Counted from the stretch's first letter, positions 29,033 through 44,302 are shown. The stretch is DNA of 64,000 bases from Planctomycetota bacterium (GCA_046290465.1 JBKAGP010000001.1:4128001-4192000); one strand, 5' to 3'. The notes: generated by a model from the letters alone, not told the origin. Program-made: numbers and translations.

Positions 29033-29887
29033 TCAGCGGGCGGTCTTCTTGCGGGTGCGCGGCTGCGGCCGCTCCTCGCCGAACTCGCGCGACATGATCT
29101 CGCCCAGCTTCTCGAGCGCCTGCTGCTCCATCTGGCGGACGCGTTCCCGCGTCAGGCCGAAGCGCTTGCCGATCGCCTTCAGCGTCATCGGCTCGTTGTT
29201 GCCGAGGCCGAACCGCAGCCGCAGGATTCGCGCCTCGCGCGTGTCCAGCTTCTCGAGCAGCTCGTGCATGCGGCCGATCTCCATCGCCGCGAGGATCTCC
29301 TCCTCCGGCGACCGGCCGCGCGTGTCCTCGATCACGTCCGCGAACGCCGCGCCGCCGTCGTCGTTCATCGAGTGCACCGGCTGCGAGTTCGACTGCACGG
29401 TATCGCGCACGACGTCCCAGTTGTTCTCCGGCAGCTCGAGCTCCTCGGCGATCTCGCCGGTGGTCGCCTGGCGACCGAGTCGGTAGCTCAGCTCCATCGC
29501 CGTCGCCTTCCAGCGCGAGACGATCTCCGACATGTAGCTCGGCACGCGCACGGTCTTGACCGTGTTGACCAGCGAGCGGCGGATGCCCTGCTTGATCCAC
29601 CAGGTCGCGTAGGTCGAGAAGCGGCAGCCGGCCTTGTGGTCGAACTTCTCGACCGCCTTCATCAGGCCGATGTTGCCCTCCTCGATCAGGTCCATGAAGG
29701 ACAGGCCGCGGTTGACGTAGTTCTTGGCGATCGAGACGACCAGGCGCAGGTTGGCGCGGATCATGTGCTCGCGCGCAGCCAGGTCGCCGCGCTGCACGCG
29801 CTTCGACAGGTCGATTTCTTCTTGGGCCGTCAGCAACGGAACTTCGTTGATGTCGGCCAGGTAGGTGTCGAGACCGTGGTCCCGCAT
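29033..29887 (-). CDS. RNA polymerase sigma-70 factor, RpoD/SigA family without region 1.1 (group-2-like)
   Basis: [66 protein letters not shown]. Confidence 0.93.
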
Positions 29888-29982
29888 GGCAGTCCTCCTC
29901 GTGGTGGTGACCTTGGAGGTATCGGAAGGACCGCAGCGATCCTGCGCCGCTGCGACCGACACCGTCGCAATGCGGGACGCGC

Positions 29983-31041
29983 TCAGCGCGCGATCACGAG
30001 CCGTAGCCGTTCGCCGTCCGCGTCGACGTCGGTCGAGGTCGCGATCGCCCCACCGTGCTCCGGATGCGACACCCGGACCACGAACGGATCGCCCGCCGGC
30101 ACCCGCACCAGCCGTTCGCCGTTCGCCCCGGTCCTGGCGACGAACATCGACGAGGCGCGGTCGGCCGCGAGCTGCCGCCAATCGGTCACGGCCAGCGTGT
30201 CGGCCGAGCACGCGAGACCGGGCGGCAGCGCGAGCACTTCGACCTCGGCCGAGGTGACGGGCGTTCCCTCGACGTCCACCACCGCGACCGCGAGTTCGCG
30301 CCAAGGTCGCAGCTCGCAACGGACCACCTGCGGACGGGTCGCGTCGAGCCGGACCAGCTGCAGCGGCGACGGCGCGTAGCGGTCGTCGTCGGCGACGACA
30401 CGCAGCAGGGCGGGGTCCTCGATCGCCACGCGCGCCTCGGCCAGCGCGCCCGGATGGGGACCGTGGATCTGCACCGGATCGGCGCGCAACGACGGATCGG
30501 CTGCACCGACGAGCTGCACGGTGAAGCCCTCGATCGGCTCGCGCGAGGCGGCGTCGACCACCTGCACCGCGACCAACCCGGCGACCGACAACGTCACCCG
30601 ATGGCCCGCGGTGCCCCATGCGGCGCGGGTCCGCGCCGGCGACCGCCCTGCCGCGGTGACCAGCAACCGGGCCTCCGCGATGCGGCGATCCCGCTGTTCG
30701 AGCACGAATCCTCCGTCGGCGTCCGTGCGCGTGCGGCCGCCGTCCGCGCAGCGCACCACCGCGCCGCGCACCGGCTGGCCGCGCTCGTCCTCGACGAACC
30801 CGCGCACGAACTGGGGCGGCGCGATCGGCTCCTCCCGTTCGTTCCCCGGCGACCGCGATCCGACCTCGGCGTCGCCTTCGTCCGCTTGCGCGACATCAAG
30901 TGGCGCAACCTGAACCGGGTTCGGTATGCGGCACTTGTCGGCGGGGTCGGGGAGCTGGGTCGTTGCCGATCGGGACAGCAGCCAGATGGCCGCGACGATC
31001 GCGGCCGCGACTCCGAGCAGCGCGAGCAGGCTGCGCGGCAC
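29983..31041 (-). CDS. Membrane-anchored carboxypeptidase-regulatory-like (beta-sandwich) repeat protein
   Basis: N-terminal [34 protein letters not shown]. Confidence 0.7.
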
Positions 31042-31046
31042 GCCGA

Positions 31047-31262
31047 CTAGAACAGCGTGTAGATGAACGGCGCCACGCCGGTCGCGCCGAGCACGAGCAG
31101 CACGCCGAGCAGGCCGAACACGACCAGGATCGGCGTCAGCCACCACATCTTGTTCTCGGCCATGAACATCACGAACTCGCTGACCAGGCCGCGCTCCTCC
31201 TCCTGAGCCGCCTGCAGGAAGTCGTCGTTCTTGTGGTTCTCTTCGTTCGCGTGCTCGGTCAT
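31047..31262 (-). CDS. DUF5989 / SxtK-like small membrane protein
   Basis: ENKMWWLTPILVV..APFIYTLF; GAGGA RBS. Confidence 0.88.
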   Translation of the reverse strand: MTEHANEENHKNDDFLQAAQEEERGLVSEFVMFMAENKMWWLTPILVVFGLLGVLLVLGATGVAPFIYTLF

Positions 31263-31294
31263 GTCAGCAGGTCCTCAGGTGTCGCGGGCTGAGC

Positions 31295-31300
31295 AGTATA
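31295..31300 (-). promoter_or_regulatory. Possible -10 element (TATACT) for the DUF5989 gene
   Basis: GGCTATACT about 33 nt upstream of the ATG; no clear -35. Confidence 0.3.
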
Positions 31301-31684
31301 GCCGTCGGATCCGACGCCACGGGATGAGAAGCCCGCATCGGGACCTCGCCGGCAGCGGTCCGTCGGGCCGAGAGCGCCAGGCCGCGATGCGACGGACGAT
31401 CCATGGGCGAGCAACCTCGCGCCCGATCCCGTCGCGTGGTTTCGTCCATGCGCAATCTCCGTCGATTGCTGGCCACCCGCGCATCAGGGAGACCACCTGG
31501 ATTTCCTGTGTAGGGGTTGCCGGGCTCGGTAGACAGTACGAGCAAAAGGCGTAATGCCTTGGCGGACACCCCCTTGCGGATAAAACATCCGGTGTAGGAT
31601 GATGAAACAGGCCTGTGCGTCCCGCCTAGTGCCGACGCAGAGTCATTATCCCTGCAGTTACTCCTCCTCTTAATTAGAGAATCC

Positions 31685-33250
31685 ATGCGCAATCCTAGTC
31701 TGTTTGCGATGGCCGCCCTGGCCATCAGTGCGACGGCGTTCGCCCAGTCGCCGCTCACCACCACGTTCGCGGCCGGGAACGGCCAGAACGGCAACATGTT
31801 CGACATCGTTGCCCTCAACCCGTCGGGCGTGACGATCGACTACTTCGACGTGCACGTCGGCACCGGCACCTTCGACTTCGAGGTCTACAAGCTGACCACG
31901 CCGGGTCCGTACCTGCCGTCGGTCAGCACGGCTGCCGACTGGACCCTAGTCGGCTCGGTCACGGGCGTCGAAGGTCAGGGCAACGGCAACCCGACCCAGC
32001 TGCCGATCCCGGTCTGTGAGTTCATCCCTGCCGGCGCGACGCAGTCGTTCTACGTCACCACGACGAACGGCGGCATCATGAACTACACCAACGGCTCGAC
32101 CACGGGCGTGGTGTTCGCCTCCAACGCCGACCTCGAGTTCCTCGAGGGCGCTGGCGTCGCCTACCCGTTCGCGTCGAACTTCAACCCGCGCGTCTTCAAC
32201 GGCAACATCTACTACAACGTCGGCAACGACCCGGCGGCCTGCACCAACGCGTTCCCGAGCAAGGAACTGTTCGGCACCGGCTGCTACGAGTCGGCCGCCT
32301 CGTTCTACGAGGTCATGGACGCGGCCAGCATGGACCTGGGCGGCGTCGCCGTCATCGGCACCAACAACGGCAACGGCTACGACATCACGACGGCTCCGTC
32401 GTCGATCGCGGCGCTCGGCCCGGGCGCGGTCAACACCAACCTCGGTGACGACGCGTCGGTCGACACCGCCACCATCGGCGGCACGCTCGGCATCCACGTC
32501 GGCTCGAACGGCTGGGTCGCCCTCGGCGGCGGCAACAGCACCGGCTTCGCGCCGGACGTCGCCACGATGCTCAGCAACCCGGCCACCGGCCTCTACGCCT
32601 GGACCGACATGCAGCCGCTGAGCGGCGGCGGCACCAACGGCGACATCTGGTACGAGGAGAGCGGCTCGGTCGCGACGATCACGTTCGACAACGTCGACGG
32701 CTGGAACACCGGCCTCCCGAACACCATCCAGTTCACCTGGGACACGGCCACGGGCGACTTCGTGATCGCGTTCGGCGTGGTCAGCACCGGCAACCCGGAA
32801 GACTGGCTGATCGGCTACTCGCAGGGTGGCGCCAGCGTCGACGGCGGCCCGACCGACCTCTCGGCCGGCCCGTTCTCGGTCGCCGCGACCGATGGCCCGG
32901 CGCTCGCGCTGGACAGCTCGGTCCCGATCCTGGGCTCGATCTGGAGCCTGCAGCTCGACAACATCGACCCGGCCTCGCCGTTCGCCGTCTTCGGCTTCGG
33001 TGACGCGGCGATCGATCCGGGCTTCGACCTGACGCCGCTGGGCGGCCCGGGCTGCTTCCTCTACATGAACGGCAACCTCGGCTTCTTCATCCAGCCGCAG
33101 ATGGCCGGCTCGAGCTCGATCAACGTGCTCCTGCCGAACATCTCGTCGCTGCTGGGCGCGTTCGCCGCGGCCCAGGGCGCCGGCTTCACGTCGCAGAACG
33201 CCCTGACGTTCGCGACGTCGAACGGCCTGCGCGTCACGGTCGGCAACTAA
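31685..33250 (+). CDS. Secreted G/N/T-rich beta protein (nidogen-like middle part) with a shared C-terminal domain
   Basis: Signal peptide AFA|QS; SNGWV, WTDM, NTIQ motifs; C-terminal PGC..LPN..Q..SNG. Confidence 0.7.
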   Translation: MRNPSLFAMAALAISATAFAQSPLTTTFAAGNGQNGNMFDIVALNPSGVTIDYFDVHVGTGTFDFEVYKLTTPGPYLPSVSTAADWTLVGSVTGVEGQGNGNPTQLPIPVCEFIPAGATQSFYVTTTNGGIMNYTNGSTTGVVFASNADLEFLEGAGVAYPFASNFNPRVFNGNIYYNVGNDPAACTNAFPSKELFGTGCYESAASFYEVMDAASMDLGGVAVIGTNNGNGYDITTAPSSIAALGPGAVNTNLGDDASVDTATIGGTLGIHVGSNGWVALGGGNSTGFAPDVATMLSNPATGLYAWTDMQPLSGGGTNGDIWYEESGSVATITFDNVDGWNTGLPNTIQFTWDTATGDFVIAFGVVSTGNPEDWLIGYSQGGASVDGGPTDLSAGPFSVAATDGPALALDSSVPILGSIWSLQLDNIDPASPFAVFGFGDAAIDPGFDLTPLGGPGCFLYMNGNLGFFIQPQMAGSSSINVLLPNISSLLGAFAAAQGAGFTSQNALTFATSNGLRVTVGN

Positions 33251-33294
33251 GCTGCTCGTGACCGAGCTCCGGCATCCCGCCGGAGGCCTCTGCG

Positions 33295-33335
33295 AAACGG
33301 CGCCGCTCCTTCGGGGCGGCGCCGTTTTGCGTTTT
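33295..33335 (+). terminator. Intrinsic terminator
   Basis: AAACGGCGCCGCTCC-TTCG-GGGCGGCGCCGTTT followed by TGCGTTTT. Confidence 0.85.
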
Positions 33336-33437
33336 GCGGCCGCGACCCGCCAGAAAACCATGTCGCAAGCCTGGGCCATCTGACGGATGTGCGTGCACCT
33401 CGTCGAGCCATCCTTCGACGGGTCCAACACGAACATC

Positions 33438-34493
33438 ATGGTCATCCGGTCCGTTCTCGCGCGCGCGCTCCCGTCGGCGCTTCTCGTCACCTCCTCCCTC
33501 TGCGCGCAGTGCCCTCCGATGTGGCAACCGCTCGGCAGCGGCCTCGACGGCAACGCCATCGGGCTCACCGTCGCAGGCGCCGACGTCATCGCCGCAGGCT
33601 CGTTCTCGTTCGCGGGTGGCAACCCCGCCAACCGCGTCGCGAGCTGGGGCGGCACGACCTGGCAGCCGCTCGGCTCGGGAACCAACGGCAACGTCTACGA
33701 AGCCGCGACGACGGCGACCGGCGACCCCGTGATCGCGGGCGGTTTCACGACGGCCGGAAGCAACACCGTCAACCACATCGCACGCTGGGACGGCAGCAGC
33801 TGGCACCCGCTCGGAGCCGGCGTCGACGGCAACGTCGAGAGCCTCACCCAGCTCGCCAACGGCGACCTGATCGTCGGCGGCACGCTCGCCAATGCCGGCG
33901 GCATCCCGTCACCCAACGTGGCTCGCTGGAACGGCTCCAAATGGTCGGCCGTCGGCGACGGCGTCGACGACGCGGTCATGACGCTGGCCTCCCGCTACGA
34001 CGGCACGATCGTGATCGGCGGCAACTTCACGGCGTCCGGCGACGTCGCGGCGCCCTACATCGCCAGCCTCGAGCCCGGTTGCCCCCCTACCAGCACCGTG
34101 CTGCCGACGAGCTGCATCGGCCCCAACGGTCCGATGACCATGACCGCGACGGCGGCCTGGGCCGGCTCGACCTACCGCGCCACCTGCACCGGCTACGGCG
34201 CGTCCTCGATCGCGGTCTCGGCGATCGGCTTCGGCCCGGCGTCGATGCCGCTGCCGCTGGGCCTCGTGTTCCCCACGGCGCTGCCCGGCTGCAGCCTGCT
34301 GGCCCCGACTCAGGTGATCGACGTCAGCCTGCCCGTCGCCGGCATCGCGAGCTACGCGCTGCCGCTGCCCAACGTGCCGACGCTCACCGGCGCACAGCTG
34401 ACGCAGCAGTTCACGCAACTGGAGCTGGGGGCATCCGGGTTCGCCTCGGTCAGCGTCTCGAACGGCATCACGTTCTCGATCGGCAGCTACTGA
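33438..34493 (+). CDS. Secreted beta-propeller-like repeat protein (WxPLGxG / ARWDG repeats) with the same C-terminal domain
   Basis: Signal peptide LCA|QC; four repeats of W.PLG.G.dG.V....GG.F; C-terminal PGC..LPN..QQ..SNG. Confidence 0.75.
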   Translation: MVIRSVLARALPSALLVTSSLCAQCPPMWQPLGSGLDGNAIGLTVAGADVIAAGSFSFAGGNPANRVASWGGTTWQPLGSGTNGNVYEAATTATGDPVIAGGFTTAGSNTVNHIARWDGSSWHPLGAGVDGNVESLTQLANGDLIVGGTLANAGGIPSPNVARWNGSKWSAVGDGVDDAVMTLASRYDGTIVIGGNFTASGDVAAPYIASLEPGCPPTSTVLPTSCIGPNGPMTMTATAAWAGSTYRATCTGYGASSIAVSAIGFGPASMPLPLGLVFPTALPGCSLLAPTQVIDVSLPVAGIASYALPLPNVPTLTGAQLTQQFTQLELGASGFASVSVSNGITFSIGSY

Positions 34494-34575
34494 CGGCCCG
34501 GGCGGGCAGAGCCGCCAGGCGGCAGAGCGAGCAGGGCGGCCGGCATCGGCCGGGCGCCCCTGCTCGACGCACGCT

Positions 34576-35001
34576 TCAGTAGAGCTTGAAGTAGCTCGAC
34601 GCCGGCCGATCGCCGCTGCGCTCGTGCCAGTAGCTCTTCGTGTTCGGGTCGAGCTTCTTGCCGATCACGTCGCGGCCCATCAGCCGGAAGACCAGCGCGA
34701 TCGGCGTCAACACCAGGTAGTAGACCAGCGCGATCAGCACGTGCGAGATCACGAAGCCGATCGGCACGAACAGGATCGACAGGCCGAGGAACAGCGCGCG
34801 CGACAGCACGCGCACGCCGATCAGGTAGAGGCCGAGCTGCGACACGCCGACGGCGGCCGCGGCGAGGAACACCGGGTGCGCCCACTCGAACGTCGTCACC
34901 AGCCGCAGCACGAACCACGCCAGCAGCGGCAGGCCGAGCACGGCGAAGAACGCGAACTGCCGGACGATGCGCTCTTCGGGCTTGAGGTCGAGCTTGATCA
35001 T
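34576..35001 (-). CDS. SxtJ-family membrane protein
   Basis: RQF, two to three TMs, PIG..IS..L...YY..LTPI...RL.GRD, SYW; directly downstream of the carbamoyltransferase. Confidence 0.85.
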   Translation of the reverse strand: MIKLDLKPEERIVRQFAFFAVLGLPLLAWFVLRLVTTFEWAHPVFLAAAAVGVSQLGLYLIGVRVLSRALFLGLSILFVPIGFVISHVLIALVYYLVLTPIALVFRLMGRDVIGKKLDPNTKSYWHERSGDRPASSYFKLY

Positions 35002-35011
35002 GGTCGTGCGG

Positions 35012-36841
35012 CTAGTCGAGGGCGAAGGCGGACAGGTACTTCTCGCGGTCGACCTCGGGCATGTCCTTCTGGTCGACGCGGCGGATGACGAAGTTCTCGA
35101 GCACGAGCACGTCCATCTCGGTGCCCATGAAGCAGCGCAGCGCGTCCTCGGGCGTGCAGACGATCGGCTCGCCACGCACGTTGAAGCTGGTGTTGATCAG
35201 CACCGGGCTGCCGGTGCGCGCGTGGAACGCGCGCATCATCGAGGCGAGGCGCGGATTGCGTTCACCGTCGACGGTCTGCAGGCGCGCCGAGTAGTCGACG
35301 TGCGTGACCGCCGGAATCACCGAACGGTTCTGCTTGAGCTTGTCGAGGCCGAACAGGCCCTGGTCGACGTCCTTGCGCTTGTCCTGCTTGACCGGCGCGA
35401 CGATCAGCATGTAGGGGCTGTCGTGGCGCTCCTCGATGTCGAAGTACTCGGACGCGTGTTCGCGCAGCACGATCGGCGCGAACGGCCGGAACGACTCGCG
35501 GAACTTGATCTTCAGGTTCATCACCGACTGCATCTTCGGCGAGCGTGCGTCGCCGATGATGCTGCGCGAACCGAGCGCGCGCGGGCCGAACTCCATCGGG
35601 CCCTGGAACCAACCGATCACGTTCTCCTGCTCGATCAATTCGGCGACGCGGTCCGACAGGCCCTGCTCGTCGTGCCGCTCGTAGACGACGTTCTGCGCGT
35701 CGAGGAACGACTGGATGTCCTCGGACTCGTACTTCGGCCCCAGCAAGCTGCCGCGCTGCGAGTCCGCCGGCATCACCGTGCGCGGCTCGCCGAGCAGGTT
35801 GTGCCAGACGAACTGCGCGGCGCCGAGCGCGCCGCCCGCGTCGCCGGCGGCCGGCTGGATCCAGATCTTGTCGAACGGTCCCTCGCGCAGGATCACGCCG
35901 TTGCCGACGCAGTTGAGCGCGACGCCGCCGGCCAGGCACAGGTTGTCCTTGCCGGTCACTTCCTTGGCGTAGCGCGCGGTCTTGAGCATGACCTCCTCGG
36001 TCACCTGCTGGATCGACGCGGCGACGTCCATCTGGAACTGCGTCAGGTCGGTCTCCGGCGACCGCACCGGCTGCCCGAACAGCGACGCGAACCGGTCGTT
36101 CGTCATCGTCAGCCCCTGGCAGTAGTTGAAGTAGCTGAGGTCGAGGCGGTAGCTGCCGTCCTCGCGCAGGTCGATCAGGTGCTTGCGGATGAGGTCCGCG
36201 TACTTCGGCTCGCCATAGGGCGCCAGGCCCATCAGCTTGTACTCGCCGCTGTTGACCTTGAAGCCGCAGTAGTAGGTGAACGCCGAGTAGAGCAGGCCGA
36301 GCGAGTGCGGGAAGCGGATCTCGCGGATCAGCTTGACCTTGTTGCCCTCGCCGACGCCGATCGACGTCGTCGCCCACTCGCCGACGCCGTCCATCGTGAC
36401 GATCGCCGCCTCCTCGAACGGCGACGGATAGAACGCCGACGCCGCGTGGCTCTCGTGGTGCTCGGGGAAGACGTAGCGGTTCTTCGGCTTGCAGCCGAGC
36501 GCGCGCGTCATCTTGCCCTTCATGTGCAGCTTCTCGCCGAGCCACGTCGGGATCGCCTTGCGGAACGACTGCAGGCCGACCGGCGCGAACGCGAGGTAGG
36601 TCTCGAGCAGCCGGTGGAACTTGAGGATCGGCTTGTCATAGAACGCGACGAAGTCGACGTCCTCGGCCGTGATGCCGGCCTGCGCGAAGCAGAACTCGAC
36701 CGCCTTCTTGGGGAAGTCCGGGTCGTGCTTCCTGCGCGTGAAGCGCTCCTCCTGGGCGGCTGCGACGATCTCGCCGTCGCGCAGCAGCGCCGCGGCCGAG
36801 TCGTGGTAGAAGGCGGAGATCCCGAGGATGTACTTCGGCAT
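35012..36841 (-). CDS. O-carbamoyltransferase (CmcH/NodU/TobZ family, SxtI-like)
   Basis: ILGISAFYHDSAA, QEERFTRRKH, HHESHAAS, DGVGE, GEYKLMGLAPYG, AGGVALNC, EFGPRALG.RS, KFRESFRPFAP, NTSFNVRGEP. Confidence 0.96.
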   Translation of the reverse strand: MPKYILGISAFYHDSAAALLRDGEIVAAAQEERFTRRKHDPDFPKKAVEFCFAQAGITAEDVDFVAFYDKPILKFHRLLETYLAFAPVGLQSFRKAIPTWLGEKLHMKGKMTRALGCKPKNRYVFPEHHESHAASAFYPSPFEEAAIVTMDGVGEWATTSIGVGEGNKVKLIREIRFPHSLGLLYSAFTYYCGFKVNSGEYKLMGLAPYGEPKYADLIRKHLIDLREDGSYRLDLSYFNYCQGLTMTNDRFASLFGQPVRSPETDLTQFQMDVAASIQQVTEEVMLKTARYAKEVTGKDNLCLAGGVALNCVGNGVILREGPFDKIWIQPAAGDAGGALGAAQFVWHNLLGEPRTVMPADSQRGSLLGPKYESEDIQSFLDAQNVVYERHDEQGLSDRVAELIEQENVIGWFQGPMEFGPRALGSRSIIGDARSPKMQSVMNLKIKFRESFRPFAPIVLREHASEYFDIEERHDSPYMLIVAPVKQDKRKDVDQGLFGLDKLKQNRSVIPAVTHVDYSARLQTVDGERNPRLASMMRAFHARTGSPVLINTSFNVRGEPIVCTPEDALRCFMGTEMDVLVLENFVIRRVDQKDMPEVDREKYLSAFALD

Positions 36842-36945
36842 GGCAGAAGGGCAGGCGAGCGCCGGCGTGTCCATGCTGCCGGATCGCCAGAAGGGTACCA
36901 CGTGAAAATCGCCCCCAGGTGAGAACGAGCCGGTACGCTTCGGCC

Positions 36946-38115
36946 ATGGCTTCGAACGCCCGCAAGCCCCGTGCTCTGGTGCTGCTGCTCGCAGCGGGCA
37001 TCGCCACGCTGGTCGCGCTCGGTCTGGCCGAGCTCACCGTGCGCATGTTCGCGTCGAAGCCGCGCGTGCTCGGTGCCATCGCGTTCCAGACCGAGGACGG
37101 CACGCCGGTGGCGGACCTCGCCGAGGCCGCCGCCAAGGGCCTGGTCGTGCAGGTGCCGGGCAAGGTCCCGGAGCAGAAGCCGCGCCGGCGGTACATGTTC
37201 AAGCCGGGCACGAGCTTCTACATCACCTACGCCGACCAGGAGGTGCTGCAGCGCGACTGGCTCGACGACCAGGGCCGCGTGCTCAACCGGATCAACTCTC
37301 TCGGCGTGCGCGAACGGGAGGAGCTGGTCGCTGACAAGCCCGAGGGCCAGCGACGGCTGGTCTGCATCGGCGACTCGTTCACGTTCGGCTGGGGCATCCC
37401 CGAGGAGCAGAACTGGGTCCGTCTGCTCGAGCGCGAACTGCGCGCGGGCGGCGACGACATCCGCACCGTCAACTGCGGTGCGTCGGGCACGGTCGTCATC
37501 GACGAGTACGTCAACGGCCTGCAGCGACGCTTCCACCGCTTCGACCCCGACGCCGTGGTGCTGACCATCTGCCTCAACGATCTGGTCGGCAGCGATGGCC
37601 TGATGGTGTTCGGTCCGCCGATCGACACCGGCTCCGCGCTGCTGGACCTGTGCGTGGGGGCGATCGGGCACAGCCCGCTCGACCTGTCTCCCGACCGGGA
37701 CTGGATCGCCGACCTGCTCGCGATGCCGCAGGTCTACCCGGACGGCACCCCCAACCCGCGCTTCGGACCGGACAAGCCGTACGACGCGATGTGGGCACAA
37801 GGCACCCCGCAGAAAGCACTTCGGCAGGGAAAGGCGTGGTGCGACGAGCGTGGCATCCCGTTCCTGGTGGTGATCTGGCCGTTCTTGCAGGGGCTTGGCG
37901 AGGGCCGCCACTACCCGTTCCAGAAGCTGCACGACCTGGTCGCGGCGGACCTGGAGGAAGCGGGCATCCCGCTGCTCGACGTGACCCCGCAGCTGCGCGG
38001 CACCAACCACGAGGACCTGTGGGTCACGCCGGCCGACACGCACCCCAATCCGAAGGCCCAGCAGCTGGTGCTCCCCGCGATCACTGCGTTTGTGCGCGCG
38101 CAGACCGGCTGGTAG
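36946..38115 (+). CDS. Membrane-anchored SGNH/GDSL hydrolase-fold protein
   Basis: N-terminal TM; INSLGVR, GDSFTFG, NCGASG, CLND, DTHPN. Confidence 0.9.
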   Translation: MASNARKPRALVLLLAAGIATLVALGLAELTVRMFASKPRVLGAIAFQTEDGTPVADLAEAAAKGLVVQVPGKVPEQKPRRRYMFKPGTSFYITYADQEVLQRDWLDDQGRVLNRINSLGVREREELVADKPEGQRRLVCIGDSFTFGWGIPEEQNWVRLLERELRAGGDDIRTVNCGASGTVVIDEYVNGLQRRFHRFDPDAVVLTICLNDLVGSDGLMVFGPPIDTGSALLDLCVGAIGHSPLDLSPDRDWIADLLAMPQVYPDGTPNPRFGPDKPYDAMWAQGTPQKALRQGKAWCDERGIPFLVVIWPFLQGLGEGRHYPFQKLHDLVAADLEEAGIPLLDVTPQLRGTNHEDLWVTPADTHPNPKAQQLVLPAITAFVRAQTGW

Positions 38116-38402
38116 ACCCGCCGGATCGCCCTAAACCGCTGTACGTCGTTTGCGTCCGGCGTGTTAGCACCCTTCAAGGGGAATCTGCGAAGTCTGAAAT
38201 TGACCCCGCCGGAGCGATCTTTTACAGGGGTTGGCCTTTCGGGCTGACTGCACGTGCCCCTGTGCTCCCCCGCTGCGCGACCAACCGGTTAACGGTCGCT
38301 CGGTGACCGATCGCAGGGCGGCCCCACGTGCGCCCACCAGGGCGTTCGCGCGCCTGACTTTCCTGCGACCGCAATTCTGTCCCCACCGCGGAGGGGATTA
38401 CC

Positions 38403-39077
38403 TTGACCGTACTGTTCCCCAAGTGGACCAACAAAGTCCCGGCCATGCTGGCGCTCGGCGCTGCCATGACCGGACTCGTCGTGGTCCTCGTCGTTTCCTT
38501 CTGGTTCTCGCCGAAGCACACGGACGTCGGGTATCAGCCCTACCAGCCGATCCCGTACAGCCACAAGCTGCACGCCGGCTCGTTCGGCATGGACTGCCGC
38601 TACTGCCACCGCACCGTCGAGGAGAGCGCGACCGCCTCGATCCCGGACGCGGACACCTGCTACGGCTGCCACAAGCACGTCAAGAAGGACAGCGTCAAGC
38701 TGCAGCCGCTGCGCGACGCGTTCAGCGATGAGAAGCAGAACACGCCGATCGAGTGGGTGAAGGTCCACCTGCTGCCGGAGTACGCGTACTTCAACCACGC
38801 GGTCCACATGCGCGCCAACGTCGGCTGCAAGAGCTGCCACGGCCGCGTCGACCAGATGGAGGTCGTGCGCCAGGCCGAACCGCTGAGCATGGGCTGGTGC
38901 CTCGAGTGCCACCGCGACGCCTCGTCGCACATCCGCCCGGCCGACGTCAAGGTCACCGACATGGAGTGGGAGCCGACCGAAGCGTCGATCGCCTCCGCCA
39001 AGAAGCTGCTCGAGTGGAACGGCAACACCCCGCCGAGCCTCAACCCGCCGACCCACTGCTCCGCGTGCCACCGATGA
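38403..39077 (+). CDS. actA: Alternative complex III pentaheme cytochrome c
   Basis: Five CxxCH motifs; QPIPYSHKLHAG; TTG start after GGAGG. Confidence 0.93.
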   Translation: MTVLFPKWTNKVPAMLALGAAMTGLVVVLVVSFWFSPKHTDVGYQPYQPIPYSHKLHAGSFGMDCRYCHRTVEESATASIPDADTCYGCHKHVKKDSVKLQPLRDAFSDEKQNTPIEWVKVHLLPEYAYFNHAVHMRANVGCKSCHGRVDQMEVVRQAEPLSMGWCLECHRDASSHIRPADVKVTDMEWEPTEASIASAKKLLEWNGNTPPSLNPPTHCSACHR

Positions 39078-42000
39078 GCAACACTGAGATGACGCACACC
39101 CAGAATCAGCAAGTCGGGAACCAGCAATCCGGCAACGAGGCCGGCACCTACTGGCGCAGCCTCGGCCAGTTGGAGAACTCGCAGGAGTTCCAGGAGATCC
39201 TGGCGCGCGAGTTCCCGGAAGGCATCACCGAAGCCCCCGACGCGGTCTCGCGTCGCGGCTTCCTCGGCGCCGTCGCCGCGTCGGTCGCGCTCGCAGGCAT
39301 GGCCGGCTGCCGCAAGCCGGAGACCAAGATCCTGCCGTTCACCAAGCGTCCGGAGGGCTTCAAGCCGGGCATCGCGCAGCAGTACGCGACGACGCTGACG
39401 CGCAACGGCTACGGCCTCGGCGTGCTCGTCAAGAGCAACGACGGCCGCCCGACCAAGATCGACGGCAACCCGGGCCACCCGAGCATGGGCGACGGCGGTT
39501 CGGACATGCAGCTGCAGGCCGAGCTGCTGCAGATGTACGACCCCAACCGCAGCCGCGAGGCCCGCAACCCGCACTCGGCGTCGCACGCCGAAGAAGAAGG
39601 GCACGGCGGTCACGGCGACGGGCACGGTGGCCACGAGGCGCACGAGGTCAACGTCTGGCAGGAGATGGCCGACTGGCTCGACGGCGACCAGGGTGCCGAC
39701 CTGCTCAACAAGCAGGGTCAGGGCATGCACGTCGTGATGCCGCCGAGCAGCTCGCCGACGCTGCTGGCCGCGGTCGCCCGCATGAAGAGCGGCAGCTTCC
39801 CGAAGGCCCGGTTCCACACCTGGAGCGCGCTCAACCAGGACCACGCGCTGCAGGGCGCGCAGATGGCCTTCGGCAAGCCGATGGCCGCCCACTACGACTA
39901 CGGCACGGCCGACGTCATCGTCTCGCTCGACTGCGACTTCCTCGCGACCGAGGGCGACAACGTCAAGAGCGCCAGCCAGTGGGGCAAGCGCCGCGCGCAG
40001 GCGCAGAACCCCAACCGCCTCTACGCCGTCGAGTCGCTCTACACGACCACCGGCACCGCGGCGGACCACCGCTTCCGCACCAAGAGCGGCGAGATCGCCG
40101 GCGTCGCGTTCGCGCTCGCCAGGCAGCTCGGCGTCGGCGCGGGCAGCGACCTGCAGGCCGCGCTCAACGGCCACTCGGCCGCCGCGTTCGAGAAGAACGG
40201 CAAGAAGTGGGTCGAGGAGATCGCCAAGGACCTGCAGTCGGCCAACGGCAAGAGCATCGTCGTCGCCGGCGCCACCCAGCCGCCGGTCGTGCACGCGATC
40301 GCGCACGCGATCAACGCCAAGCTCGGCAACCTCGGCAAGACCGTCACGATGACGGCCGTCGCCGACGGCATCGCCAGCAACTGCACCGCGCAGCTGCAGG
40401 AGCTCGCCGCCGCGCTCGCCGCCGGCACCTGTGAGACGCTGATCTTCCTCGGCACCAACCCGGTGCTCGACGGCCCGGCCGACCTCAAGCTCGGCCAGCT
40501 GCTCAAGGACAAGAAGCCGAAGACGACCATCCACGTCGGCCTCTACGACGACGAGACCGCGCACCTGTGCGACTGGCACTTCCCGATGACGCACGACCTC
40601 GAGGCGTGGGGCGATGCCCGCGCGCACGACGGCACGGTGTCGATGCAGCAGCCGCTGGTCGCGCCGCTGTTCGGCGGCGTCTCGGCGCTCGAGTTCCTGG
40701 CGTTCTTCAACCAGGACAGCGCCGGCAACGCGAGCTGGGACCTGCTCCCCGAAGGCCGTGACACGACCTTCGGCTACGAACTGGTCAAGCAGCACTGGCA
40801 GCAGCAGAGCGGCGCCCCGGACTTCGAGTCCAACTGGTGGCCCAACGCGCTGCACGCCGGCATGGTCGACGGCACCGGCCTCGCGGCCGAGACCGCGACG
40901 GTCAACGGCGGCGTGATCGCCACGGCGGTCACCGCCTGGCAGAAGCCGACCGGCATGGAAGTCGTCCTGCGCGGTTGCCCGAAGATGGCCGACGGCCGCT
41001 TCGCCAACAACTCGTGGATGGCGGAGATCCCGGACCCGATGACCAAGCTCAGCTGGGACAACGCCGCGATGCTGAGCATGGCGACCGCCCGTCAGCTCAA
41101 CGTCCAGAACGGCGACATGCTGACGATCAGCGCCAACGACGCGACGCTGCAGATCCCGGCGTGGATCCTGCCGGGTCACGCCGACGACAGCATCTCGATC
41201 TTCCTGGGCTGGGGCCGCAAGCTCGAGCACTGCAAGGTCGCCGCCGGCGCCGGCTTCAACGCCTACCCGCTGCGCACGAGCGCGCAGTCGTCGATCCTGA
41301 GCGGCGCCAGCGTCGGTCGGGGCAGCGGCTCGCACACGCTGGTCTGCACCCAGGAGCACGGCACGATGGCCGGCCGCGCGCTGGTGCGCGAGGCCGACGT
41401 CGCGACCAACAAGAAGGACCCGCGCTGGGCGCCGAAGATGTCGCCGCTCGACCAGGCCGCGCGCCTGCACGATCCGAAACACGGCACCGAGAAGGACCTC
41501 AACAAGTCCCTCTGGGAGGAGCGTGGCTACGACAAGGGCACCGCGTCCAAGGACGACGACGTGCGCAAGTCGCCCTACCAGTGGGGCATGGTGTTCGACC
41601 TCAACGCGTGCACCGGCTGCAGCGCCTGCATGACGGCGTGCGTCGCGGAGAACAACATCCCGATGGTCGGCAAGATCCAGGTCGCGCGGAACCGCGAGAT
41701 GTTCTGGATCCGCTGTGACCGCTACTTCAGCTCGACGGGCGAGGACGCGCTGTCGATGGCCGAGGACCCGCAGGTCGCGAGCATGCCGGTGCCGTGCATG
41801 CAGTGCGAGAACGCGCCGTGCGAGTCGGTGTGCCCGGTGGCGGCGACGATGCACAGCCCCGACGGCCTCAACGACATGGTCTACAACCGCTGCATCGGCA
41901 CCCGCTACTGCAGCAACAACTGCCCCTACAAGGTCCGCCGCTACAACTACCTCGACTACATCGGCAACGTGCCCGACACGAAGCAGATGGCGTTCAACCC

Positions 42001-42316
42001 CGACGTCACCGTTCGCAGCCGCGGCGTGATGGAGAAGTGCACCTACTGCGTGCAGCGCATCAACGGGGGCCGCATCGAGGCGAAGCTGAACGGCAAGAAG
42101 GTCGGCGACGGGGAGAACGACATCCGCGTCACCACGGCGTGCGCGCAGGCGTGCCCGACCCAGGCCATCACGTTCGGCAACATCATCGAGACGACCAGCA
42201 AGGTCGCCAAGCTCCGCGGCAGCGACCTCAACTACGGCCTGCTCTCCGAACTGAACACGAAGCCGCGCACCACCTACCTGGGCCGCGTGCGCAACCCGAA
42301 CCCCGCTCTCTCCTAA
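39074..42316 (+). CDS. actB: ACIII molybdopterin-oxidoreductase-like plus Fe-S subunit
   Basis: YWRSL, Tat motif SRRGFL, lipobox [48 protein letters not shown]. Confidence 0.95.
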
Positions 42317-42329
42317 CGGGCCACTATCG

Positions 42330-43754
<1,425 letters not shown>

Positions 43755-43765
43755 GGACCCTACTG

Positions 43766-44302
43766 ATGACGACTAGCAACAAGTGGGGCGTGGTCGCCGA
43801 GTTCGACTCGGCGCAATCCATCTACCACGCCGCCGAGAAGCTCACGGCCGAGGGCTACACGCGCACCGACGCGCACACGCCCTTCCCGGTGCACGGCATC
43901 GACAAGAAGCTCAACCACCGCGAGAGCCCGCTCGGTTGGATCGTCGTGTGCTGCGGCTTCACCGGCATCTGCCTGGCGCAGCTGATGATGTATTGGATGA
44001 ACGCGGTCGACTACCCGTTCTGGGTCTCCGGCAAGGAGCCCTACGCGTGGCCGGCCACGATCCCGATCACGTTCGAGCTGATGGTCCTGCTCTCGGGTCT
44101 CGGCGCGGTCTTCGGCATGTTCGGCCTGAACAAGCTGCCGCGTCTGCACCACCCGATCTTCAACCACAGCACGATCCACCGTGTGACCGACGACCGCTTC
44201 TTCCTCTCGGTGGAAGCGACCGACCCCAAGTTCGACAGCCAGAAGACCGTGCAGTTCCTGCAGTCGATCGGTGGCACGAACGTCGAGATCATCGAGGACT
44301 GA
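43766..44302 (+). CDS. actD: ACIII subunit D (DUF3341)
   Basis: HTPFPVHGID, GK....P..PITFELMVL, TDDRF. Confidence 0.92.
   Translation: MTTSNKWGVVAEFDSAQSIYHAAEKLTAEGYTRTDAHTPFPVHGIDKKLNHRESPLGWIVVCCGFTGICLAQLMMYWMNAVDYPFWVSGKEPYAWPATIPITFELMVLLSGLGAVFGMFGLNKLPRLHHPIFNHSTIHRVTDDRFFLSVEATDPKFDSQKTVQFLQSIGGTNVEIIED

Follow-up and report, generated by a model that had tools for sequence, protein, structure and literature searches.

A conserved carbamoyltransferase-SxtJ-DUF5989 gene trio and its candidate SGNH partner in a Planctomycetota bacterium: a candidate relay with a tyrosine tail

Introduction

The stretch of DNA analysed here (64,000 nucleotides at full length, hereafter the window) comes from a Planctomycetota bacterium (GCA_046290465.1 JBKAGP010000001.1:4128001-4192000). 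Its positions 31047..38115 hold the genes for a DUF5989 peptide, an SxtJ protein, a carbamoyltransferase and an SGNH protein, as determined from a listing of open reading frames (ORFs) together with Pfam and NCBIfam scans (Table 1). An earlier sequence-only reading had named these four proteins as DUF5989, SxtJ, a NodU/CmcH carbamoyltransferase and a membrane-anchored SGNH protein, and the Pfam matches bear out all four identities. The same reading had proposed that the peptide acts as a shuttle that hands a carbamoyl group to the SGNH protein for the modification of a surface glycan. The genome is a single contig of 6.59 Mb in which DUF5989, SxtJ and a carbamoyltransferase of this type are each encoded once, while its two genes for membrane-bound O-acyltransferases (MBOATs) are located more than 1 Mb away from the module and none is found in the window.

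Two known systems have made a short C-terminal motif of interest in this context. According to the excerpts of PMC12148441, DltX displays FXYXXF at its extracellular C-terminus with an invariant tyrosine that is acylated, and PatA likewise ends in FXYXXF with an acylated tyrosine, with the PatA peptide FIYANF giving acetyl to PatB. In the clusters for saxitoxin, sxtJ and sxtK are listed as genes of unknown role, and the GDSL protein SxtL has been guessed to remove carbamoyl (excerpts of PMC2679770 and PMC2885083). A search of a literature library found no paper that mentions DUF5989, nor any that joins DltX, an acyl shuttle, SGNH proteins and carbamoyl into a module of the kind described below. 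A paper on tailocins and an O-carbamoyl polysaccharide that we considered (PMC8319346) has, in its excerpts, no bearing on the module.

Results

A trio of genes shared across phyla

The frame of the carbamoyltransferase (35012-36901, minus strand, with a likely start at 36841) matches both Carbam_trans_N (8e-102) and Carbam_trans_C (8e-72). Its score against the NodU equivalog of NCBIfam is 142 bits where the cut-off is 1000, so the enzyme is not NodU itself. His128, His129 and His132 are invariant residues of this protein, which we take to be the metal ligands of a Kae1-like site. The SxtJ ORF (34576-35175, minus strand) matches PF19588 with an E-value of 9.8e-7 and 29.9 bits (cut-off 24.4) and probably starts with the ATG at 35001, 10 bases past the stop of the carbamoyltransferase. 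SxtJ proteins also have a conserved aromatic tail at their C-terminus, with the consensus RYFRQF and the variant SYFKLY in the window protein.

We fetched 80 loci with an alignment of 14 representatives and scanned them by local profiles iterated from the window proteins. These loci span Planctomycetota, Myxococcota, Acidobacteriota, Verrucomicrobiota, Proteobacteria, Chloroflexota, Bacteroidota, Nitrospirota, Omnitrophota, Gemmatimonadota and others. Carbamoyltransferase, SxtJ and DUF5989 genes occur together in 73 of the 80, on the same strand every time, and follow each other in this order in 63 of the 73. Judged by these comparisons, the trio of enzyme, SxtJ and peptide is the conserved core of the module. 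Among the seven exceptions, three loci end at a contig edge less than 1.6 kb upstream of an SxtJ-peptide pair, i.e., on the side where the carbamoyltransferase is expected. One further locus has no enzyme within 4.9 kb (L042), another lacks a detectable SxtJ (L102), and the remaining two (L041 and L049), with 10 kb available on both sides, have a solo peptide gene and neither of the other two trio genes. The solo DUF5989 gene of L049 keeps the context of a rhomboid gene that holds a full trio in L046.

The window enzyme shares 59-73% identity with trio-linked enzymes of other phyla (43 of 75 full-length matches aligned), compared to 29-32% with the carbamoyltransferases of four relatives without DUF5989, which have no SxtJ nearby. 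By this measure the trio-linked carbamoyltransferases form a distinct group, and their conservation would fit a fixed protein substrate that is itself invariant. At one locus (L034:3304-7618), the genes for the large and small subunits of carbamoyl-phosphate synthase are found directly upstream of the trio, plausibly as a local supply of the donor. No MBOAT is encoded within 10 kb in 78 of the 80 loci, and in the other two an MBOAT gene directly follows the SGNH gene (L074) or is 4.5 kb away (L101). At the former (L074:5778-7288, Sandaracinaceae), the SGNH gene comes after the trio and the MBOAT gene behind it is cut by the contig end, so that this SGNH protein could serve either donor.

A peptide with an invariant tyrosine near its end

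The peptide gene (31047-31262, minus strand) matches PF19451 over model positions 2-49 of 49, i.e., up to the last position of the family model (E 7e-18, 64.9 bits, cut-off 27). Its product is built from an acidic N-terminal region, an NK-WW element, one hydrophobic helix, the small-residue linker GATGVAP and a terminal FIYTLF that includes Tyr68. Translation thus agrees with the sequence-only reading, which had placed FIYTLF and the stop codon at 31047-31067. A search of 1.84 billion representative proteins gave 1944 DUF5989 clusters (E up to 0.001), and the best 150 of these 1944 were examined. All 150 keep the tyrosine of the tail, 149 at position -4 and one shifted by an extra residue past the motif, while proline is present at -7 in 148, the exact FIYTLF in 98, and the proteins terminate directly past the motif. 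The tyrosine is also kept in 100 of 100 DUF5989 copies across 91 gathered loci, tandem paralogues included. A tyrosine that does not vary, as the idea of a shuttle had implied, was found in both sets, and conservation of this tail is far from chance.

In the consensus of the free peptides, lysine or arginine precedes the helix and no charge follows it, which predicts an orientation with the N-terminus inside and the C-terminus outside. As a small protein with a single helix, a terminal FxYxxF and an invariant tyrosine, the peptide has the general form of a DltX-type shuttle. Seven loci (L018, L020, L021, L022, L025, L026 and L027) carry two to three DUF5989 copies in tandem, some of them behind a fusion protein that already bears the module, and whole-genome searches found up to four DUF5989 copies per genome in relatives. 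Longer DUF5989-bearing proteins that look like read-throughs from SxtJ into the peptide were seen only as two single-member clusters (P0285 and P0166), which may be sequencing errors and were set aside. A search of the ESM Atlas from which the DUF5989 clusters were left out gave no usable match.

The same kind of tail ends the two MBOATs of the window genome (PFIYFQF and PFIYFRF) and the MBOAT of a relative, G029 (FLYFQF). When profiles were compared, DUF5989 aligned over its whole helix and tail to the final helix and tail of these three MBOATs (probability 49%, E 1.7e-4), which is support of a moderate degree. At two places in the window genome (L005, around 2.68 Mb, and L006, around 1.11 Mb), proteins encoded next to MBOATs carry Asp/Gly-x-His-Trp followed later by GTSF, and we presume these to be AlgJ-like.

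A predicted complex of the three trio proteins

The complex of enzyme, SxtJ and peptide was predicted with a separate alignment for each chain and the peptide as the scored partner. It obtained a score of 0.73, while the best of three controls reached 0.00. In a benchmark, 116 of 157 solved complexes attained this mark, as did 2 of 215 mismatched pairs, but these counts are a rough guide here, since we supplied the alignments ourselves and predicted three chains at once. Between runs, at least 95% of contacts agree, and the predicted local distance difference test (pLDDT) of the partner is at least 76. The model therefore supports the view that the three proteins bind each other.

In the model, the N-terminal region of the peptide and the first half of its helix touch residues 64-124 and 349-351 of the enzyme as well as the C-terminal tail of SxtJ. 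The peptide helix is predicted to run antiparallel to the long conserved helix of SxtJ with peptide residues 60-66 and 68-69 in the interface, and the parts of SxtJ in contact with the peptide are its first transmembrane helix (TM1), this long conserved helix and the C-terminal tail. Modelling of the peptide with the carbamoyltransferase and the SGNH protein had been suggested as a check at the outset; the prediction supports binding to the first of the two, jointly with SxtJ (0.73 versus 0.00), and the model of a fusion protein (see below), in which the tail has low confidence, is uninformative about docking at the SGNH domain.

The SGNH family around and beyond the trio

The SGNH protein of the window (36919-38115, plus strand) matches PF13472 (Lipase_GDSL_2) at 9e-15 and has an N-terminal hydrophobic anchor behind arginine and lysine residues. 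Its motifs are G151-D152-S153 and D373-T374-H375, and all 31 family members compared keep Ser153 and His375. The window protein has no ALGX match in Pfam (E up to 0.01), while several of its relatives do match ALGX.

Family members near trios match the local profile with E-values of 1e-25 to 1e-110. They lie no more than 1.5 kb away from the trio at 22 of the 80 loci, and at 18 of the 56 loci that have at least 2 kb on both sides. The SGNH gene is therefore the most recurrent neighbour of the trio, yet not an obligatory one. A Pfam scan of neighbours covered 96 of 295 selected ORFs, the two nearest per side in 27 of the 80 loci, and detected no SGNH protein beyond those found by the local profile and no MBOAT. 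It did detect sugar-related genes in about 10 of these loci and genes for carbamoyl-phosphate synthase in one.

At the level of genomes, all five tested genomes whose trio has no SGNH neighbour encode the family elsewhere. Among 41 relatives, the family is present in all 33 that have DUF5989, while the eight without DUF5989 lack it in four cases, have a single weak match (2.3e-14) in one and strong matches in three. Two of these last three are same-genus assemblies that are fragmented or 71% complete. This co-occurrence is only suggestive, as related genomes are not independent samples and the family is multi-copy. The expectation that DUF5989 keeps company with SGNH rather than MBOAT genes is upheld in part, namely by the scarcity of MBOATs around the trio and by the fusions described below, but not by adjacency, which is limited to 22 loci.

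The family also has ties to MBOATs. In G029, which has no DUF5989, a family member follows the MBOAT ending in FLYFQF, one gene apart, and the neighbours of both MBOATs of the window genome match the C-terminal, His-bearing part of the SGNH profile.

Natural fusions of SGNH and DUF5989

In six loci from the same order but other families, a single frame starts with an N-terminal anchor and continues with the SGNH domain, three more hydrophobic helices, a stretch resembling the N-terminal region of DUF5989, the DUF5989 helix and, last, APFIYTLF and the stop. Independent gene calls gave the same picture, since each of the 14 clusters found with one fusion protein has PF19451 together with PF13472, and in several of them ALGX is present as well. 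Judged by frame lengths and matches, eight of the 41 relatives are fusion genomes.

These fusions are the strongest new evidence. A natural gene fusion of this type speaks for joint action of the SGNH domain and the tail. As three helices separate the peptide module from an SGNH domain that is outside, the tail would be on the SGNH side, which agrees with the lysine or arginine that precedes the helix in free peptides. A single-member fusion cluster of 521 amino acids (P0284) ends in APFISTLF and is the only DUF5989 module seen with serine for the tail tyrosine, which may be an error or a real hydroxyl swap. AlphaFold2 folded a fusion protein with a mean pLDDT of 84.3 and a predicted template modelling score (pTM) of 0.76. 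We considered homology of the three helices to the N-terminal half of SxtJ and dropped it (hhalign probability 0.7%). In the fusion clade, a small ORF before the enzyme matches the SxtJ model only at positions of about 67-132.

Layout of the window and an insert

The peptide gene of the window is not adjacent to the SxtJ gene but separated from it by two secreted-protein genes on the plus strand (Table 1). In the close relatives L022, L024 and L025, the SGNH gene is followed by a divergent carbamoyltransferase-SxtJ-DUF5989 unit with one or two DUF5989 genes and without the insert. Since the insert is absent from these three relatives, the arrangement in the window is, on comparative grounds, a local insertion or rearrangement. 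Among the genomes compared, the two genes between SxtJ and peptide were seen in the window genome only, and the protein of 33387-34493 has no homologue at the corresponding place in relatives. A promoter scan of 30900-38300 gave a single weak match (31645..31673) compared to a mean of 0.4 for shuffled sequence.

Table 1. Features of the window between the DUF5989 gene and the SGNH gene.
Feature	Position	Strand	Basis or remark
DUF5989 (SxtK-type) microprotein, 71 amino acids	31047..31262	-	Pfam PF19451
Codons for F-I-Y-T-L-F and stop, candidate shuttle motif	31047..31067	-	translation
Sigma-70-like promoter match	31645..31673	-	weak; upstream of the peptide gene by about 380 bases
Inserted gene, secreted protein of 521 amino acids, no Pfam family	31685..33250	+	signal-peptide-like N-terminus; absent from the module of relatives
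Inserted gene, secreted beta-propeller-like protein of 368 amino acids	33387..34493	+	DUF5122 / Rax2 matches; signal-peptide-like N-terminus
SxtJ-family small membrane protein, 141 amino acids	34576..35001	-	Pfam PF19588
NodU/CmcH-type O-carbamoyltransferase, about 609 amino acids	35012..36841	-	open frame up to 36901
Membrane-anchored SGNH protein, 398 amino acids	36919..38115	+	PF13472; divergent transcription; Ser153, Asp373, His375

At about 98% identity, contigs from three seawater RNA libraries of a single study, and from a further run whose kind is a guess, cover chiefly 31685-33250, so a near relative's copy of this gene is present in RNA libraries. The module genes have next to no cover in the same contigs, which is uninformative either way. 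Downstream of the peptide gene (29033-31050, minus strand), the window encodes a sigma-70 family protein with regions 1.2 to 4 as well as a membrane protein that bears a CarboxypepD_reg domain. In the long ORF of the latter, codons 1 to 34 are only an alternative frame of the conserved peptide gene. The SGNH gene is followed on the plus strand (38403-44300) by genes for multi-haem CxxCH proteins, a large protein of Fe-S / molybdopterin-like type and a polytopic membrane protein. By its gene content, this run may be an alternative complex III operon. No glycan genes were found beside the module in the window.

Discussion

On comparative data, a carrier with a tyrosine tail that is tied to a carbamoyltransferase and to SGNH proteins is well founded. 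What the four genes do together is a more tentative matter. We propose, at somewhat less than an even chance, that they form an MBOAT-free group-transfer relay that delivers carbamoyl outside the cytoplasmic membrane. SxtJ and the DUF5989 peptide would keep the carbamoyltransferase at the membrane, where the enzyme would load carbamoyl on the invariant C-terminal tyrosine of the peptide. From there, the membrane-anchored SGNH protein would take the group to an acceptor outside the cytoplasmic membrane. We infer that it is carbamoyl that the tyrosine carries, that the carbamoyltransferase itself does the loading and that the SGNH protein is the transferase; the acceptor is probably a glycan of the envelope (a surface glycan, as first proposed, is a guess) and may differ between SGNH paralogues. 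The linker of small residues before the invariant proline would allow a swinging or re-entrant tail. Seen against the sequence-only reading, the relay has gained from the invariance of the tyrosine, the likeness of the tail, the trio at 73 of 80 loci, the predicted binding and the SGNH fusions, whereas the adjacent SGNH gene proved to be a feature of only 22 of the 80. A broader version is possible but more doubtful, in which DUF5989/SxtK carries O-carbamoyl-tyrosine in a widespread MBOAT-independent relay where one conserved trio feeds several SGNH transferases with different acceptors.

Several observations weigh against the relay. The enzyme is cytoplasmic while the tail is predicted to be outside. 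Judged from the residue lists of the complex model, the tail of the peptide most likely lies along residues 68-79 of SxtJ and not in the active site of the enzyme, of which His128, His129 and His132 are absent from the named contacts. The family alignment of SxtJ shows no invariant histidine or other obvious catalytic residue and nothing like the catalytic histidine of MBOATs. On the side of the acceptor, 58 of the 80 loci have a trio without an adjacent SGNH gene (38 of the 56 with full flanks). The window genome has 14 matches to the multi-copy SGNH family, which also occurs without DUF5989 (G029), so its presence elsewhere in a genome is weak support. The AlphaFold2 model of the fusion protein has its tail undocked at a pLDDT below 50 and is uninformative on docking, and one of the 14 fusion clusters has serine for the tyrosine of the tail. 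In a Foldseek search of the PDB with a fusion relative, the 38 matches listed of the top 50 were ordinary SGNH esterases and CgnD, with PatB, AlgX and DltD all missing among these listed matches. Pfam at E up to 0.01 assigned the peptide to PF19451 only and not to the DltX family, and the DUF5989 profile run against PDB sequences at E up to 10 found no DltX chain, only weak DsbB and other chance helix matches. In the saxitoxin clusters, finally, the presumed acceptor is a small alkaloid (excerpts of PMC2679770 and PMC2885083).

In a rival explanation, SxtJ and the peptide only anchor the enzyme to the membrane or regulate it, and the enzyme works at the cytoplasmic face, directly on its final substrate, a lipid-linked sugar or a small molecule. 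The tail would then have a role in structure or assembly, while the SGNH proteins would act separately, e.g., as esterases or decarbamoylases. We consider this explanation as a whole unlikely, though it deserves serious attention. The trio being the conserved core, with no SGNH gene next to it at those 58 loci, is what it would lead one to expect; the same goes for a model in which the N-terminal region and helix of the peptide bind enzyme residues 64-124 while the tail is not named against catalytic residues, and for esterases as the nearest structures among the Foldseek matches listed. However, it leaves unexplained why the peptide should end in Pro-Phe-Ile-Tyr-x-x-Phe-COOH, with the tyrosine in 150 of 150 and identical to a tail proven to carry acyl groups, why the SGNH domain is fused to it in eight genomes, and why the SGNH family partners MBOATs.

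In another scenario, the peptide is a true tyrosine shuttle for SGNH transferases with cargo from another donor such as an MBOAT encoded elsewhere, or the enzyme modifies the peptide for regulation. The SGNH family is indeed also found beside MBOATs, two loci have an MBOAT gene near the trio (directly behind the SGNH gene in L074 and 4.5 kb away in L101), and the solo DUF5989 genes of L041 and L049 have no enzyme within 10 kb. Yet the MBOATs of the window genome and its relatives have a tail of their own and thus no need of a separate peptide, 73 of 80 peptide genes are in a same-strand unit with enzyme and SxtJ, the three chains are predicted to bind, and genomes without DUF5989 have only distant carbamoyltransferases. 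We therefore regard another donor as improbable. Least probable of all, and very much so, is a merely convergent likeness to FXYXXF that reflects, e.g., a signal for membrane insertion, sorting or oligomerisation common to several inner-membrane proteins: no family-level homology to DltX was detected, the match to MBOAT ends is moderate (probability 49%) and one fusion protein has serine for tyrosine, but the same tail is an experimentally established acyl carrier in two systems (excerpts of PMC12148441), and in the module it is again found together with, and even fused to, the SGNH fold, which is the recipient of the acyl group in both.

If the proposed relay exists, one of its closest parallels would be DltB-DltX-DltD, the system for D-alanylation of teichoic acid, with which it shares a single-helix microprotein with terminal F-x-Y-x-x-F and an invariant tyrosine, and a membrane-anchored SGNH-type partner outside (excerpts of PMC12148441). 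In contrast to that system, the module has no MBOAT or carrier protein; its donor would be an ATP-dependent cytoplasmic carbamoyltransferase with SxtJ, its cargo would be carbamoyl instead of aminoacyl, and its host belongs to the Planctomycetota and is not Gram-positive. Without an MBOAT, without DltX homology in Pfam or PDB-sequence profile searches and with a different donor chemistry, the peptide is best placed outside the DltX family. With the PatA-PatB and AlgI-type systems of O-acetylation, the module has in common the tail, including the preceding proline in the MBOATs of the window genome, as well as an SGNH family member that follows an MBOAT and relatives that match ALGX. However, the tail of those systems is fused to the MBOAT and loaded via a trans-membrane tunnel, whereas that of the module is free or fused to SGNH. 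The order of motifs also differs, with serine before Asp-x-His in the window SGNH protein and Asp/Gly-x-His before serine in the MBOAT neighbours of the window genome.

Enzymes such as NodU, CmcH and TobZ resemble the window carbamoyltransferase in both Pfam domains and the invariant His128, His129 and His132, but they modify soluble substrates directly, with no small membrane partners involved. Conservation is also far higher in the trio-linked group (59-73% across phyla), for which residues 64-124 form a predicted binding site of the peptide helix. The closest described set of genes is sxtI-sxtJ-sxtK-sxtL of the cyanobacterial clusters for saxitoxin, and the Pfam family PF19588 is named after SxtJ. 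SxtK is presumed to be a DUF5989 member that ends in the motif.

As single chains, the SGNH-DUF5989 fusions lend themselves to structural and biochemical work on these proteins. If the relay is true, a function would be assigned to SxtJ and to DUF5989 (1944 representative clusters), both very common families whose role is unknown, and there would be an explanation for how carbamoyl could reach molecules outside the cytoplasm. The principle of the tyrosine acyl shuttle would be extended past MBOATs to an ATP-dependent donor and a group that is not acyl. Should DUF5989/SxtK more generally serve in such a relay, the GDSL protein of the saxitoxin clusters would add carbamoyl and not remove it.

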